Shown piece by piece: positions 14,758 through 48,278 of a stretch of DNA of 64,000 bases (positions are counted from its first letter, which is position 1; every line of letters starts with the position of its first letter). Source of the DNA: Naegleria gruberi. Its lineage: Eukaryota. The stretch lies in NCBI GenBank assembly GCA_000004985.1, contig GG738860.1; one strand, 5' to 3'. Below the pieces are notes generated by a model. That model had not been told where the DNA came from and did no database searches. It saw only the letters and a list, made by a program, of their open reading frames with translations. Made by a program: the position numbers and the translations under genes.

Positions 14758-15579
14758 ATGTCTAACATTTTCTCATTCTTCGGTCAAGAGATCAAAACTG
14801 GTGCTCCTCAAGCTTTCGAAATTCCATTCGGTGAAGTTATTCTCCACTTGTCCACCGTCTCTCTTGCTAAGGATACTCCAAAGGGAGCAATTACCAGAGT
14901 TTTTGTTCACTCAGTTGATGAAGATGACAAGGAAACGAAGGAATCTGTCTCCATTGACTTGAACTTCAGCGAAGATGTTGCCCTCTCTATTGAAACATCC
15001 GCTAATGATGATACTACTGTCCACGTTACTGGTTATATTAACTTGATTAACGAAGATGGTGAAGAAGGTGAGTATGGTGGATATTCAGTCATTGACGGCG
15101 ATAATCTTGAAGATGAAAGTGATGAAGAAGAAAAGACCAAGCTCTTGAGAAAGATGTTGGAAGAAGAAGATGACGAAGAAGATGAAGATTTCAAACCAGA
15201 TTTGAACGAATCATCTGAATCTGCAAAGCTCGAAGAATTGAGTGACGAAGATGATATTGAACCAATTGTCGGTGAAGAAGATGACGAAGATGTCGATCTT
15301 GATGAAGAACAAACTGAGGAAGTTGTTAAGAGAGTTCAAGATTTAGAAACTAGATTGGGAAGAGAAGCTAACGATGAAGAAATCAAGGGTATTGTTGAAA
15401 GAGTTCAATCTGGCATTCCTGAACCAAAGAAGGAACAAAAGCAACCACAAAAACAACAACAAAAACAACAACCAAAGCAACAACAAAAGCAACAACCAAA
15501 GGAAGATAAGAAGAGAAAGCAAGAAGAAGCTCTAGGAAATAACAAGAAGAATAAGAACAAGAAGAATAAGAAGAAATAA
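14758..15579 (+). CDS. Nucleoplasmin-like (NPL) acidic histone-chaperone-type protein of 273 aa.
   Basis: The N-terminus MSNIFSFFGQEIKTGAPQAFEIPFGEVILHLSTVSLAKD follows the FxG.EVK.G pattern of NPL, HD2 and Fpr4 N-domains. A long D/E tract and a K/Q-rich tail follow. Single exon. Confidence 0.55.
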   Translation: MSNIFSFFGQEIKTGAPQAFEIPFGEVILHLSTVSLAKDTPKGAITRVFVHSVDEDDKETKESVSIDLNFSEDVALSIETSANDDTTVHVTGYINLINEDGEEGEYGGYSVIDGDNLEDESDEEEKTKLLRKMLEEEDDEEDEDFKPDLNESSESAKLEELSDEDDIEPIVGEEDDEDVDLDEEQTEEVVKRVQDLETRLGREANDEEIKGIVERVQSGIPEPKKEQKQPQKQQQKQQPKQQQKQQPKEDKKRKQEEALGNNKKNKNKKNKKK

Positions 15580-15634: not shown

Positions 15635-15993
15635 TTAGAATGAATTACTTCCTTTAAAAACTAGAACTGCAAGGTTTCCATTGAAATAAAGGTAAAGTAA
15701 GTTCTTTGCTTCATGAGTCACTGACACTCCGAATCCTTCTCCTATTATACAATGCCATGATTTACCATATTTCTTATCCATTTGGGTTTTAATTGCCTTA
15801 GCAGCATTTTCATAATTTTGGGGTGATTTTTCCAAAGCTGTTTCAATTGCTGTTGATACTGTTTCAACACAGTCTATCCTCATATCTTCCGGCATATCAC
15901 AATGCTTAGAAATTTATTTTGTATAACTTGATGATTTAAAAGACCTACCACTACGAGCGCTAAATTATTTGCTGGATTTCCTTCTTCTGCCAT
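15635..15993 (-). CDS. Dynein light chain LC8 (DYNLL). Exons are 15993-15949 and 15904-15635, with a 44-nt intron.
   Basis: Contains KAIKTQMDKKYGKSWHCIIGEGFGVSVTHEAKNLLYLYFNGNLAVLVFK, the LC8 core. Exon 1 reads MAEEGNPANNLALVV, followed by GTAGGT...CTAAG. Confidence 0.85.
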
Positions 15994-16121: not shown

Positions 16122-17705
16122 ATGGACGATCAACCACTTGAAGAAGACCGTCTATCACAAACTAATGAACAAAAGGATAACAATTCTGCTGTTTCAAATG
16201 CAGAACAAGATAAGGGATCATTGTATGAGAGAGGAAAACAGTTTTTAACAATTAAGGAATCAAAGCTTAGCAAAGAGAGAGAAAGAAAAGTGAATCAAGG
16301 ATCATCAGAATGTACTTTCCAACCAAATATATCAAAGAAGAGTAAAAACATGACTCGGGAAGAGAGTTTGTACGAATATAACAACAAGTGGGTATGTACT
16401 ACATCGCATTTATTTTACTAAGATGTTCGTTAACAGAAATCTAAAGTTGATCATAACATTGAGGAACTAAGAGCAAAGCAATTGAAAAGAGAAGAAGAAC
16501 AAATCCATGCAAAACCATCACCATTATCTGTTGTTTCACAATTTATAATTCAAAAGAAACAGGAACAGAAGGAATATTCAGGTCCTATTACTGGTTGGGA
16601 GAAGAGATTTGATGAATATCGTCATAAGAATCAAATGTATTATGATGAAGAGTACAACTTTTCTCCAAGAATTAATGAGAAATCAACATTGTTGGCCAAC
16701 AAAAATAGATCCGATGCAGAATCAAATCCTTTTGAAAGACTTTATGGAGATTCAAAAAAGAAAAAGGATGAGGAATCCTCAAGTCCAAAAGACAAGAAAA
16801 AGTCGTCTGAATACGACGATGAAAGAAGGAGAGCTGAGGCAGAGTTTTATAAGAAGGCACTTGAAAGACATTTAGAGGCAGAAAAGAAGAAAGCAAAAAT
16901 GAAAGAAGATCAAGAAGATCAATACTCTTTTAAACCTGCTATTAACAAACATTCAAAGGATATAGCCAAACATTTGGAAAGACCACCACTTTATTCACCA
17001 AAGAAAGGTTCTTCACCATCTCAAACTATTTCCCTTGAGAATACCGTTACTACAAATACAAGTACTAATTCTAATACTACTAAGCCAGATAGTCCTTCTC
17101 CAAACAAAAAGAAGTTCGAAGTTGATAACTTTATTCAAAGAAGACTTACTAAGGAGAAACAAAGACAAGATAAGATTAATCAACTTAAACACGATATAAT
17201 AGAAGAGGAAATGAAAGAATGTACATTTAAGCCTTCGATCAATCAAAAGTCTGTGGAGCTTGCACACTTGTGGATTGAATCATTTGATAATGATTTGGAA
17301 GAATTATATGAATTTGACCCAAGATACAATCAATCTTCTCCTAAACCATTCTTGAAAAAGAATTCATCACCTGGTTTGTCATCTTCCAAGAAGGAAAAAA
17401 CAAAAGGAAGTCCAATTAGACAGAGCTTGAAATCAAGTTCTTCCAATATTATTGAGTCAATCATAGATGATGCTATGAAGAGTATTGAAATGGAAAGATC
17501 CCTGAAATCAACACCAAAGAGCTCAGTCGAGATGTCAAAAGAACCTACACTAAAAGAAATTGTAACACCAAGAATCTCAGAATCAAACAGAAAGAGATAC
17601 TCTCTATCTGATGATGAAGATGATGACTTTGTATCAATAGAAAATGAAATGAAATCGGCCATCCAAGAATTTGAAGAAGAATGGAGTAAATATGAAGGCT
17701 TGTAA
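16122..17705 (+). CDS. Coiled-coil, K/E-rich protein with repeated E-C-T-F-[QK]-P-x-I-[SN] motifs. Exons are 16122-16391 and about 16437-17705.
   Basis: Motifs ECTFQPNISKKSK, YSFKPAINKHSK and ECTFKPSINQKS. The intron is GTATGT...TTAACAG after ...YEYNNKW. The gene is paralogous to the one at 43721-46591. Confidence 0.55.
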
Positions 17706-43720: not shown

Positions 43721-46591
43721 ATGAGCCTCAACAAAATCAGTTCGTCCTTATCAAAGACGGACGCACCCTCCTCAGATGTTCTCTTTGATCAAATGGTACG
43801 TAAATTAAATTTATGAACACTAAAAGGGTTTTTTTTAGCTGAGAGATCCTCAGGTAAGAAGGAAATTGGCTTTGGGCAAACATTTTGAAGCTCTCTCCTT
43901 AACGGAGGAAGAGGAAAAAGCCATCAAAGAAGAATTGATTATGGCTAAAAGATATGAAAACGAAATTAATGAAAAAGTAACAAAGAAGATAGAAAATGAA
44001 GAATTAAAAAAGTTACTTATGGAACATGATGACCACAGAGGATCAAGCTCAAAGATGCAAGCTTACTATAATAAGCTTCATCAATTGCAGATACAAGCAG
44101 AAGCAAAGCTTAAAAAACAAATTAGAGAAGCCGAGGAATATGAAATAACAAAACTTCAAGATGATCAACAAAGATTGCTTGAAAATGAAACAAAAAAGCT
44201 TCTGGAAGGTCGGGAATTGTTTCAACAATCAGAAGAAAAAAGAAAAGTAGTGGAAAAGAGGGAATTGGAAAAAAGAGAAAAATGGAAATCTCCCGATGAT
44301 AACACACTCTTTGAATCCAGCAAATCTTCTCCAAAGAAGAGAGACTTGATTTCCTTACTTCAGTCAAATTCTCAACAAAGTAAGTTGTACTATTGCGCCG
44401 ATTCTTAACACTGCGTAGAAAGAGTTATTCTTTTAATGACAGTCGATATTGGTGATGGAAGGTCTGATACTATTACAGTCAGAGAAGAAGATTCATATGT
44501 AGACTTGGCAAAACAGTTTCAAGACAAACATGGCTTAATTGCTGATGTTATTGAACCTCTTGCTGAGCATATTAAGTTCAATGTCGAAAAGGTATTGAAA
44601 GAAAAAACAATGGACATGATTAAAAGTTCCCAATCTAACGTGTATAGTAGAAGTCCTGTATCAAAGAAAACAGATAAGGTATGTTAAATTTAATTTCATA
44701 TATTTATTAATATAATAAGGTTGACAAATATGACGATTTGCAACAAATTGTGGATACTGTAAAGAGGAGCTCAACACCATCTAGCTCTAAAAACAAAAAG
44801 GTTTTTATTTAAAAATAAAATTTAATTTACTAACCCGATACTCATTTATAGCCGATACACGAAAGATTGCACGAAAGTGCTAAATTCAAGGAAGCAAGAA
44901 TATTAAGGATAAAGATGGAACTTACCAAAACTGAAGATGAAAAGATTCAAGAAACAAAGGTACCAATGAGCGAAACAAGTAAAAAGATTGTGGAAGAGAT
45001 TGAAAGAAGTAGAGCAAAGGAAAGATATCAAAATTATGGAGAATTTTTATATAACGAAGGAAAGGAAAATCAAAAACGTCAACAATTGGAACAGGAAAGA
45101 TTAAAGAGACTCGAGGAGGCTAAGGAGGATGTTTTCTCATTCAAGCCACAAATTAACACAAACTTTAAAGTAATAAGGGGAAGTCATGCAGCAAACTCAT
45201 TCAAGGCAAATGTGATAGCCTATGCTGAAAATGAAGAAAAGAAATGCCCTTTCAAACCAAAAATCAATGCCAAGTCTTCAATGATTGCAATGCAAAAAAG
45301 AAATGAGGAATTTCTTTCTGAAGCAAATCCAAATCCATCCATTACACAAGCTCACGAATCACTGTTCAAGGATGCAGAAAAGAGGAGAATTAGAATTGAA
45401 CATATGCAACAAGAGGCTGCTAGAATGTCCCTACCTCCATCTAAAGGAAGTAAACCAAGTCAAGAACATATAGACAAGCTTGTAAACAGTAAGAAAAATG
45501 TTGAAAAACAAATTTCACAATTAAGAGTTCAATTGAACTCCAACTTTGATCCTGATACTGGAAGAGAATTTTTCAAACCAGTAATTAACAAGAGGCCTAA
45601 ATCAGCAGGTGGTAATAGACAGACCCAAAATGTATATGATGAACTATATCAAAGACAATTTGACACAACAAAGTCACTAATCTCAAAAGAATTTTATAAG
45701 GAAGTGAACAAACTTGCAAATAAGAAGCATACAAATGAATCCAGTAAGAAGATTGCTGAGGTTGCTAAGCTTAAAAAGATTTACAAATTATTTGCTTACC
45801 TTGACCAAGACGGAGATGGTTTCCTAAATATTGAAAAAGATATTCTGTCCTCAAGCGAGGAAAGATTTAATGTTTTGGATAAACCATTGCAAGAAATACT
45901 GCTAGATGTTTTTGAGCTCTTTGATGTGGATAGTGATATTGGATTTGAAGAATTTGCTGCTGCTGTTTTTGAACGAATGGAAAAACCAGATTCTAAATCT
46001 GCAATCCTTTCATCTCAAAAGGGTTCTGTTCACAAAGTAAGTGGAATTGATATTCCTCCTTCAGAATTGCCAGATTCTGAGTGTAGCTTCAAACCTAAGA
46101 CAAATAAGAAGAGTGAAGAGATTGTGGTAGCCAAGCGTGCCAGTGCTACTGATCTTCATGATCTTCTTTATAAGGAGAAGGATAAACGAGAACAAAACTT
46201 GTCAAGATTGAAGCAAGCATATACCGAAGACGAAATGCGAGAATGTTCGTTTAAACCTCAAGTTATTAATCCAAGTGCAGAGCATGGAATTTCAGATGAA
46301 ACTCTTAACAGATTGCTAGCTCCAAAAAAGAGACAATCATACTATGGTCCAAGTGAAGACAAGGAGTTAGAAGAATGCACTTTCCGTCCAAAAACAAACA
46401 CAATGCCTGAAGGTGTTTATCAGCAACAAACTAATAATAATAATACCAGTAAGATAATACGGCCAAACAAGAGCTATTCTGAAATTTTCACAACTGAACA
46501 ACCAATCACACCTAGAAAAATCTCATCCAATAATAATCCCAGCAGTGGAAACAAATCAAGTGGTAAAAACCCTCTAAGTCTCCTAAGATAA
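43721..46591 (+). CDS. EF-hand-containing coiled-coil protein with six [EK]C[ST]F[KR]P-x-[IT]N repeats. It is a paralogue of the gene at 16122-17705. Exons are 43721-43795, 43839-44379, 44443-44678, 44720-44800 and 44852-46591.
   Basis: All introns are in phase by hand calculation; one carries TACTAAC. Repeats include DVFSFKPQIN, KCPFKPKIN, EFFKPVIN, ECSFKPKTN, ECSFKPQVIN and ECTFRPKTN. The EF-hand loop is YLDQDGDGFLNIEKD. A conserved block DIGDGRSDTITVREEDSYVDLAKQFQDKHGL is also present. Confidence 0.6.
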
Positions 46592-46595
46592 TAAA

Positions 46596-48278
46596 TTAAT
46601 CTAAAATATCATCCAGTCTTGCATTATATTCAATACTTGTGTTATAAGCTCCTGAAATAGAGTTTGATTGGGCAATGGGAATCATTCTTATTGATTCTTG
46701 TCTCAAACTGTCATGTGTTGCACTATTTCTATAAGAGTTACTATTATTTTCATTTCCTCTAGAATTATTATTTTGGAAGTATGGTCCACTAAGAATTGAA
46801 CTTGCTTGAGTTTGATGTATTATTCTCATTCCGTGTTGATTACCACTACTTGCCACAGAGGAATATAATGGTGTCTCATTATTGAAATAATTTGGAAGGA
46901 ACGTTCGTGGTGCATTGTCATAGTGAGCAGATTCTTCTTCAGAGCATTCATCATCATCATAGTGATTATCCAAATGATAATAGTAAACAGATTTTGGAAC
47001 AATATTGTCTGCACTTGGTGAATCGAGTGCAATCTTTGGTCTTTCTGTATAAATAACTCCAAACTTGATTTCTTCCTCTTCGTTCATATTCTTATCAGAA
47101 AAATCAGGTGATTTTTGTTTGAGAGGTGTTTCAGAGCTTTCTCCACTAAGAAGGGATGATTTGGAATTGACCTTTTTAACCTTTTTCTTAGAACAGCAAT
47201 AACTCTTATATTTTGAAAAGAAATGATGTCCATAAAGAATCATATTCAAGAATCCTTGAAGTGGATTAGTAATTGCTTGTAATAAATCCAACCAAAAAAT
47301 ACCAGAAATCATGGTAGTACTCGTTGGTGATTGTGCAATAATAATTGATTCTTTACCAAATTAGAAATCACATCAAGTATTTGTAAACTTACCAACAAGA
47401 CGATTAATAAAAGCAGGAATCCATGTAATGAAAAATGCAATCATAATAAGAGAGAAATTGAGTATTGTTCGTTTGCCCAATTGTTGATATCTGTCACTAA
47501 GTGATAATACCTCATATCTATTACTCTTCCTTCTATGCATTCTAAAGCAAATGCAAACTCCCAAGAAAAACACTGCACACATACTCACACAAATGTATAC
47601 AATCAAGAATGTAAAGAATCTAAAGTTAAGAAATTGTGAATGATCATGAGCTAATCCAATCCAACACCACTGTTGTAAATTATCTATTCTATTGAATTTC
47701 TGTGTTAGTGACACAGTTACAGTATATAATAGTGGAACAATCCAACAAATTAAATGGAAAATAACCTCAAGAATTATCTTCCTTCTCCTATGCTTTTCCT
47801 CTGAAAAGTGTGGAGTGACACTCAAAAACAGTTGTAAACAAATGCAAGTACTCCAAAACACAGAACTCAGTTCAAAACAAGTCATTAAAAACCCTTGTAA
47901 GAAACAACACCATTCATATTCTAAACTCAACCCGAATAACGAAATCAAATAACTAAAGCTTGCAACTAGATCGCTAACAGATAAATAAAACACCAACCGA
48001 TGATTCATAGCTGTCATTCTATAATTATTTCTCTTTCTAGATTTCTTGTGTTTTCTCCATGAAAGTATTGTAAACAGTATTGTACTGAATATAATAAATG
48101 AAGATCCGAATATTGACAAGATGGAGCTAACTCCAGTTGTGTACCTGAGTGCATTTTGTTCTATGGACACTGTCGTTTCGTTACTAGGTATCGTAGAATT
48201 GTCTTCAACTATCACATATTGACTCAATATATTCCATGAATATTCCATCAGAGATGATGGTATAATAGATTGTATCAT
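46596..48278 (-). CDS. 7TM receptor of the cAMP-receptor/Git3-like GPCR class. Exons are 48278-47393 and 47350-46596.
   Basis: Seven hydrophobic segments. CICLQLFLSV and FWLDLLQAITNPLQGFLN motifs. Basic and Ser-rich cytoplasmic tail. The intron is a 42-nt GTAAGT...GGTAAAG. Confidence 0.5.

Follow-up and report, generated by a model that had tools for sequence, protein, structure and literature searches.

Sfi1, with its centrin-binding repeats, and SPM1/MAP6/SAXO, with their Mn motifs, are long proteins, helical or extended, that measure out partners or lattice sites by a short conserved motif at fixed spacing, and TPX2 binds the microtubule lattice. Six Mn motifs have been counted in SPM1 (PMC12819142). 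The CPH1-interacting protein CIP3 of the Toxoplasma conoid fibre is described as an extended 'molecular glue' around protofilaments 2-5 of this tubulin-based fibre, which bridges the seam, penetrates the tubulin wall and is present in one copy per 8-nm repeat (PMC12819142; PMC12905489). When CIP3 is lost, growth is moderately impaired, and CIP3 and CF1 form a synthetic lethal pair (PMC12819142; PMC12905489; PMC5740107). No repeat in CIP3 is mentioned in these three papers (PMC12819142, PMC12905489, PMC5740107), and in the conservation table of its authors the protein is marked as present in only a few of the compared species (PMC12819142). Here we describe two genes of Naegleria gruberi that are built on a repeat of about 55 residues, which also occurs in CIP3 and in a large set of protist and algal proteins. 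The genes, referred to as gene 1 (NAEGRDRAFT_79231) and gene 2, are located in a 64,000-nucleotide stretch of nuclear DNA (contig GG738860.1 of assembly GCA_000004985.1; 33% G+C, short GT..AG introns), which is called the window below. The repeat is named CTFKP.

A scan of all six frames of the window with a regular expression and with a hidden Markov model (HMM) of the repeat unit identified ten occurrences of the nine-residue motif, six in gene 1 and four in gene 2, and none outside these two genes. An eleventh, degenerate copy (LYEFDPRYN) is also located in gene 2. The recurrence of the motif in two K/E-rich genes, as given by an initial annotation made from the sequence, is therefore confirmed in both coordinates and content (K 12.8% and E 11.2% in gene 1; K 13.9% and E 12.9% in gene 2). 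Compositional bias of this kind could by itself suggest that the motif is a chance product of low-complexity K/P-rich sequence, the outcome that the initial annotation had named as fatal to it. However, none of 20,000 composition-preserving shuffles per protein matched the observed motif counts, the mean expectation being about 0.001 strict matches per protein, and thus the motif is not a K/P-rich compositional artefact. Comparison with the orthologs of Naegleria lovaniensis and Willaertia agrees with this result: the six gene 1 units never differ in their Phe and Pro among the three species, and invariant columns make up 60% of the motif against 38% of the remaining protein in gene 1 (Fisher p 0.0015) and 60% against 31% in gene 2 (Fisher p 0.00024). 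With the shuffles, the orthologs and the profile search described below all pointing the same way, the explanation by composition is refuted and we consider it practically impossible.

The unit profile, constructed from 31 units, was searched against 1.84 billion representative proteins. At E <= 1e-3 it retrieved 2,607 protein cluster representatives, of which 476 reached E <= 1e-10; many of the retrieved proteins carry 6-11 units. The six units of gene 1 score 25.5-32.4 bits and the four units of gene 2 score 25.2-42.6 bits; since the window units belong to the seed alignment, they match the profile by construction, and it is the 2,607 other proteins that provide independent support. Named members of the family were found in Heterolobosea (Naegleria, Willaertia), Kinetoplastea (Papus), Metamonada (Dysnectes), oomycetes (Aphanomyces), and in green algae (Chlamydomonas reinhardtii CHLRE_08g358567v5, Chlamydomonas sp. 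UWO241, Volvox, Astrephomene, Polytomella, Tetraselmis, Symbiochloris and Bryopsis), all of them in organisms that presumably have flagellate stages. No animal, fungal or amoebozoan protein appears among the 30 matches whose names were looked up, which does not establish absence from these groups. A word-indexed homolog search with the 65-residue unit alignment returned 12 short fragments only. The superfamily is apparently an ancient eukaryotic one.

Every named member is annotated as 'hypothetical' or 'uncharacterized'. None of 58 full-length members has a Pfam domain at E <= 1e-3, and nothing was found in Pfam for the repeat in gene 1, gene 2 or 16 members scanned individually, of which ten are among the 58 and six were scanned at E <= 10. 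Among the papers open to full-text search, the search found neither the gene identifiers nor the motif strings in a relevant context. Thus the CTFKP superfamily is unnamed and without a Pfam model, and appears to be undescribed, which agrees with the initial failure to place the motif in a named family.

The consensus of the linker was derived from 969 units in 160 proteins and reads E-x-E-[LM]-x-E-C-T-F-[KQR]-P-x-I-N-x-x-S-x-x-[LI]-[AV], with residue frequencies of 99% for F, 100% for P, 75% for T, 69% for C, 61% for I and 57% for N. The stretch between linkers also contains a weaker conserved element, (P)-[VI]-x-E-R-L-[YH], with which the helix described below often starts; about 30 charged residues come next. 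The units are most often 50-56 residues apart, and other spacings cluster near 100 and 150-160. In gene 1, units 4 and 5 are 54 residues apart and the other spacings are 37, 44, 107 and 172 residues, while in gene 2 they are 99, 90 and 99 residues. An AlphaFold2 model, calculated from an alignment of 100 units with residues 728-792 of gene 1 as its first row, is extended at positions 1-10, a single helix at 11-55 and again extended at 56-65. Its mean predicted local distance difference test score (pLDDT) of 86 and predicted template modelling score (pTM) of 0.47 correspond to a confident helix without a compact fold. The predicted helix, of about 45 residues, is amphipathic and charged. Both genes show this combination of unit spacing and long helix, and each contains at least three profile-matching units with the core Phe and Pro. 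According to the model, the nine-residue peptide is the linker of a helix-plus-linker repeat of about 55 residues, and the small structured unit originally envisaged gives way to a linker that is extended and joins long single helices. A Foldseek search with the single-unit model gave no matches, a lone helix being uninformative.

A metal-binding or redox site in each unit would be a natural thought, because all Cys residues of both proteins (four of four in gene 1 and two of two in gene 2) belong to the motif and Cys is the commonest residue at its position. We regard such a site, which corresponds to the metal contact of the initial annotation, as highly improbable. Each unit has a single Cys, positions -16 to +19 show no further co-conservation or enrichment of Cys or His, and the three or four Cys/His ligands of a metal site are not found. 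Moreover, the Cys is replaced by L (8%), Y (8%) or F (7%) in a total of 23% of the 969 units. Two units of gene 1 (1 and 3) and two of gene 2 (2 and 3) are among them, and the pattern fits a hydrophobic contact, not a ligand.

When the unit profiles were compared with all PDB chain sequences, CIP3 (TGME49_225020; 9y9z chain 63) ranked first with the short profile (E 0.058) and was the sole significant solved-structure relative with the 65-column profile (E 3e-5); apart from it, nothing in PDB reached E < 0.3 with the latter, many axoneme chains included. CIP3 contains at least one complete unit, running from CTFHPAVN at position 570 to ECTFQPNI at 623, and the distance of 53 residues is the modal spacing of the family. 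Weaker units are located near positions 234 and 484. The likeness is carried by the unit profiles, as a full-length profile of gene 1 has no match in CIP3 at E <= 10. CIP3 is not an ortholog of gene 1; it has fewer recognizable units than gene 1 or gene 2, and neither the PFU-like block nor the EF-hand region of gene 1 (see below) was seen in it. All three are hypothetical proteins, and coiled-coil and disordered regions have been reported for CIP3 (PMC5740107).

Starting from the repeat anatomy, its conservation and breadth, the occurrence of all named members in presumably flagellate organisms, and the relationship to CIP3, we infer, largely by analogy, that the products of genes 1 and 2 are filamentous scaffolds that bind the tubulin lattice, and we give this reading a probability of about 0.4. 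Both proteins would be elongated, non-globular structural proteins, whose chain of helices could run along a tubulin polymer, either on the wall or in the lumen of a microtubule or in a fibre associated with the basal body or rootlet. In Naegleria such a fibre would be one that is built when the cell turns into a flagellate, and the proteins would have a role in the cytoskeleton of that stage. The linkers may act as regularly spaced hydrophobic anchors, with the Pro as helix breaker and the C/Y, F and I side chains inserted into pockets at or between tubulin subunits, an arrangement that can be likened to the way CIP3 wraps and threads the protofilaments of the conoid fibre. On geometric grounds only, a 45-residue helix, about 6.7 nm long, together with a linker of about 10 residues would be within reach of the 8-nm repeat of the tubulin dimer. 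Gene 1 would carry, as additional adaptors, a PFU/CCT-like fold and a pair of EF-hands whose Ca2+ ligands are only in part canonical; because of them it would probably serve in docking or be a regulated member, and gene 2 would probably be a plain spacer or stabilizer. A contact between the units and tubulin is plausible by comparison with CIP3, a wrapper of tubulin protofilaments, and to this extent, short of proof, the microtubule contact of the initial annotation stands.

Several observations weigh against the tubulin-lattice scaffold. The link to tubulin passes through a single relative, CIP3, which is joined to the family by a sequence match. The Chlamydomonas member CHLRE_08g358567v5 is annotated as hypothetical or uncharacterized, not as a flagellar-associated protein. 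Homology to TPX2 is undetectable: the hhalign probability is 0.8% for the unit, and for the C-terminal module of the largest subfamily described below it is 3.6%. Among PDB chains, those of axonemes, the central apparatus, radial spokes and centrioles give no match to the unit profile at E <= 10. Finally, nuclear, nucleolar and scaffold proteins often contain charged single helices as well.

The lack of axoneme and centriole matches could also favor a repeat that punctuates helices in a non-cytoskeletal protein, such as a nuclear, nucleolar or other charged scaffold, in which the Pro linker breaks the helices and its hydrophobic residues staple neighboring helices of the same chain or of a homodimer. 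The K/E/R/S-rich composition with Ser-rich tails, the lack of a Pfam domain that would tie the family to the cytoskeleton, and the AlphaFold2 model, which is helix and linker only, are in line with this explanation. It is nevertheless rather unlikely, since the near-invariant F and P, together with specific T, I, N and S residues across supergroups, exceed what a helix breaker needs, the pTM gives no sign of intramolecular packing, and CIP3 is cytoskeletal.

A bolder form of the tubulin-lattice reading can be formulated, which we offer as a speculation that is less than probable. The CTFKP unit may be an ancient module that 'stitches' the tubulin lattice, which could date back to the last eukaryotic common ancestor, and may define a new sequence class of microtubule-associated or microtubule inner proteins in Discoba, Metamonada, stramenopiles, alveolates and green algae, whose linkers occupy tubulin pockets at a fixed period. 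CIP3 would then be a lineage-specific offshoot, and both Naegleria genes would act in the de novo formed system of basal body, rootlet or cortical microtubules. If the tubulin-lattice reading holds, thousands of 'hypothetical' protist and algal proteins would receive a shared description and a testable function, and CIP3, so far listed in only a few species, would join a pan-eukaryotic repeat family, which bears on the assembly of the conoid from older cytoskeletal parts. Naegleria builds its whole flagellar microtubule system from nothing in about one hour (PMC4819266), and would be a natural testing ground for when and where such proteins act. Even without the link to tubulin, 2,607 protein clusters that lack a Pfam model are a clear annotation gap, for which a family model can be built from the present alignments.

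The two genes had been described as paralogs. They have the repeat in common, and by sequence comparison they belong to two different old subfamilies within a single repeat superfamily and are not close paralogs. In BLASTP, their similarity is limited to the surroundings of the units (best E 5.5e-5 over 39 residues), and neither retrieves the other by phmmer at E <= 1e-3 among the approximately 200 retrieved family proteins, which are labeled by P-numbers. Each has closer relatives elsewhere. The nearest relatives of gene 1 outside Heterolobosea are P0153, P0134 (Polytomella), P0100, P0119 and P0005 (E 1e-34 to 1e-17), and those of gene 2 are P0124, P0045 and P0018 (E 1e-13 to 1e-11).

The subfamily of gene 1 is characterized by an ordered architecture that consists of the N-terminal block, an 'NYGE-LY' element, CTFKP units, a W-PD-x-TF-x-P element, a DP-x-TG-x-x-F-x-P-x-x-GRAP element, an EF-hand-like region and two more CTFKP units. 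The five nearest relatives of gene 1 named above, from distant lineages, share this architecture and retain the order of the block, TG-x-x-F-x-P, the EF region and CTFxP. The third and largest subfamily, with about nine units in a fixed order, carries the conserved C-terminal module GP-V-x-V-R-GLGR-x-LELKE ... RE-x-x-VF ... T-[VI]-P-x-P-F-x-L, the first part of which reads GP-V-x-V-x-GL-x-R-x-LELKE in relaxed form; it includes Chlamydomonas CHLRE_08g358567v5, Volvox VOLCADRAFT_104176 and proteins of Tetraselmis and Bryopsis. The TVPxPFxL element was found by regular expression in 70 of 199 retrieved proteins, and an HMM of the module matches 83 at E < 1e-5. Gene 1 has no match to this HMM. Gene 2 matches it through the CTFxP parts only (full-sequence E 0.01, 8.9 bits), and is not assigned to the subfamily; a putative degenerate copy of the module at the C-terminus of gene 2 ('SSPKPFLKK') received no support from the HMM and was rejected.

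The gene structures and other features are listed in Table 1. All introns of both genes are 39-63 nt long and have canonical GT..AG borders. For intron 2 of gene 1 (region 44380-44442) there are two candidate acceptors, at 44418 and 44442. The acceptor was set at 44418, because the orthologs of N. lovaniensis and Willaertia have KRVILLMTV directly N-terminal to DIGDG; this choice gives an intron of 39 nt and regains eight residues (KRVILLMT) that are kept in the orthologs. The resulting model is covered to 98% by the orthologs of N. lovaniensis (932 aa) and Willaertia (888 aa), and the NCBI model of N. gruberi (558 aa) is 100% identical to it over 63% of the length of the 898-aa model. The public model spans only the reading frame of the last exon, leaving out exons 1-4 (43721-44851), which encode about 320 residues, including the PFU/CCT-like block, that are present in both orthologs. 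The K/E-rich N-terminal segment has matches in gene 1, P0002 and P0003 only, and its conservation is confined to Heterolobosea.

Table 1. Features of the two CTFKP genes and their neighbors; coordinates refer to the 64,000-nucleotide window
Feature	Position	Strand	Basis or comment
Gene 1, NAEGRDRAFT_79231, extended model, 898 aa	43721..46591	+	Splice model; public model and orthologs; ATG at 43721, TAA ending at 46591
Gene 1, five exons	43721-43795, 43839-44379, 44419-44678, 44720-44800, 44852-46591	+	Splice model
Gene 1, N-terminal K/E-rich region, residues 26-176	43839..44291	+	Putatively helical, from composition alone
Gene 1, PFU/CCT-like module (RVILLMTVDIGDGRSDTITVREEDSYVDLAKQF...)	44421..44633	+	Predicted beta-hairpin and two helices
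Gene 1, unit 1 linker VFSFKPQIN	45131..45157	+	Motif scans; Phe/Pro invariant in orthologs
Gene 1, unit 2 linker KCPFKPKIN	45242..45268	+	Motif scans, ortholog comparison
Gene 1, unit 3 linker REFFKPVIN	45563..45589	+	Within subfamily-specific element DP-x-TG-x-x-F-x-P-x-x-(K/G)R(P/A)
Gene 1, EF-hand pair	45773..45985	+	Pfam EF-hand_7 (PF13499), E 4.9e-7
Gene 1, first EF-hand loop DQDGDGFLNIEK	45803-45838	+	Lys at position 12 in place of the canonical Glu
Gene 1, unit 4 linker ECSFKPKTN	46079..46105	+	Motif scans; unit modeled by AlphaFold2
Gene 1, unit 5 linker ECSFKPQVI	46241..46267	+	54 residues C-terminal to unit 4
Gene 1, unit 6 linker ECTFRPKTN	46373..46399	+	Motif scans
Gene 2, 512 aa, exons 16122-16391 and 16437-17705	16122..17705	+	Splice model, orthologs; ATG at 16122, TAA ending at 17705
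Gene 2, unit 1 linker ECTFQPNIS	16308..16334	+	Motif scans
Gene 2, unit 2 linker EYNFSPRIN	16650..16676	+	Motif scans
Gene 2, unit 3 linker QYSFKPAIN	16920..16946	+	Motif scans
Gene 2, unit 4 linker ECTFKPSIN	17217..17243	+	Top-scoring unit of the window (42.6 bits); core identical in three species
Gene 2, degenerate fifth unit LYEFDPRYN	17304..17330	+	Missed by the unit HMM
Nucleoplasmin-like gene (NPL domain)	14758-15579	+	Long acidic tract, Q/K-rich tail
Dynein light chain type 1 (LC8) gene	15635-15895	-	Head-to-head with gene 2
Region just 3' of gene 1	46596-48278	-	Contains the next two open reading frames
Ser/Asn-rich open reading frame	46596-47312	-	
Rhodopsin-family seven-transmembrane receptor-like open reading frame	47373-48278	-	Pfam 7tm_1, E 1e-8

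The distinct DIGDGRSD...LAKQF block of gene 1, singled out in the initial annotation, is real and is conserved far outside Heterolobosea. It has a PFU-type fold in the prediction, with a beta-beta-alpha arrangement, and may be a PFU/CCT-like module of the type that binds peptides or ubiquitin. The gathering score of the PFU domain (PF09070) is missed by gene 1 (16.5 bits, cut-off 26.2), and Polytomella P0134 scores 18.6 bits. The EF-hand loop, also recognized from the start, is now supported by a Pfam match that exceeds the gathering score of EF-hand_7 by a very small margin (30.4 bits, cut-off 30), and weak EF-hand matches were the only result of PDB searches with full-length gene 1 by phmmer and profile. 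Position 12 of the first loop is Lys in N. gruberi and Thr in N. lovaniensis, and a canonical Ca2+ loop is lacking in P0100, P0119, P0134 (Polytomella) and P0153, where the loop is degenerate. Because of the Lys and of this degeneration, Ca2+ binding by the EF-hand of gene 1 is uncertain, and the loop sequence suggests that the region may be structural rather than Ca2+-binding.

On the 3' side of gene 1, the stop codon of the Ser/Asn-rich reading frame is 4 bases away from that of gene 1, and this frame may be a C-terminal tail exon of the seven-transmembrane receptor-like gene.

The N. lovaniensis ortholog of gene 2 (C9374_002352) has 515 aa and is 54% identical at 96% coverage; the ortholog in Willaertia (ABK040_010457) has 493 aa. 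No NCBI-named protein of N. gruberi surfaced for gene 2, the sole 100% match being a 407-aa ENA open reading frame over exon 2; gene 2 may be unannotated or mis-modeled in the reference annotation. Gene 2 is arranged head-to-head with the LC8 gene at a distance of 226 bp, and the pair is kept in N. lovaniensis (77 bp) and Willaertia (48 bp), which suggests a shared bidirectional promoter. The pair is part of a syntenic block that comprises a DEAH helicase, the nucleoplasmin-like gene (found at the same place in N. lovaniensis and Willaertia), LC8, gene 2, a beta-propeller gene and a PKD channel. Gene 2 and the convergent beta-propeller gene (- strand) have 1 base between their stop codons in N. 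gruberi and 7 in N. lovaniensis, which leaves essentially no space for separate 3' untranslated regions. The initial annotation had named the cilium or basal body as an example of a location to check, because of dynein genes in the window; the nearby dynein gene is a single light chain of the LC8 type, a weak ground for a ciliary assignment. A candidate LC8-binding motif of the TQT type in gene 2 was rejected by eye, as 'PSQTIS' is not conserved in N. lovaniensis.

These neighbors and modules are pertinent to an explanation in which the repeat is a multivalent docking scaffold of the Sfi1 kind. The linker, with or without the adjacent helix, would be a short linear motif for a globular partner, arrayed at intervals of about 55 residues in a chain that does not itself bind tubulin; an EF-hand protein, an LC8-type light chain and a PFU/CCT-like module are candidate partners. 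A sharply conserved, regularly spaced short peptide within a fast-evolving helical chain is what a linear binding motif would be expected to look like, and the nearest structural relatives of the gene 1 block, PFU and the CCT domains of WNK/OSR1, bind ubiquitin or short peptides. The conserved pairing with LC8 could be added to this, but it is not specific evidence because it lies inside the larger conserved syntenic block. No partner emerged from the present analysis, the motif is unlike LC8 TQT, CCT RFxV and the Sfi1 consensus, Pfam Sfi1 has no match, and the one studied relative, CIP3, is itself bound to the lattice. We view the docking scaffold as the main alternative to the tubulin-lattice scaffold, though an unlikely one.

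Among known systems other than CIP3, PLAA/Doa1 with its PFU domain and the WNK and OSR1/SPAK kinases with their CCT/PF2-like domains are comparable to the N-terminal block of gene 1 only, at 11-21% identity. The block covers only the C-terminal half of PFU, and the PUL/WD40 context of PLAA/Doa1 is absent in gene 1. A relationship to FAM161A_B was dropped, since matches in 2 of 42 members with a best E of 0.14 are no evidence.

TPX2 (PF06886; human, PDB 6bjc_T) resembles the CTFKP proteins in having helices parted by short conserved Phe/Pro motifs, which in residues 481-747 of the human protein, as checked against 6bjc_T, read PFKPQIPE, KFKALPLP and CFKARPN. The T-[VI]-P-x-P-F-x-L element of the largest subfamily finds its best PDB match in TPX2 ('HTVPKPFNLS', E 0.013, sub-threshold), which is a hint in favor of the tubulin-lattice reading; genes 1 and 2 lack the element. 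Pfam TPX2 has no match in genes 1 and 2 at E <= 1 and none in the other members scanned, full-length TPX2 (6bjc_T) has no match to the unit profiles at E <= 10, and homology was rejected on the hhalign probabilities given above. By sequence, the resemblance would be a functional analogy at most, and membership in the TPX2 family is not supported. Sfi1 and SPM1/MAP6/SAXO differ from the CTFKP repeat in consensus and in period, which is about 55 residues in the latter, and Pfam detects no match to these families. As a general kind, the CTFKP proteins would be akin to periodic scaffolds of the cytoskeleton, in which helices alternate with short linkers.

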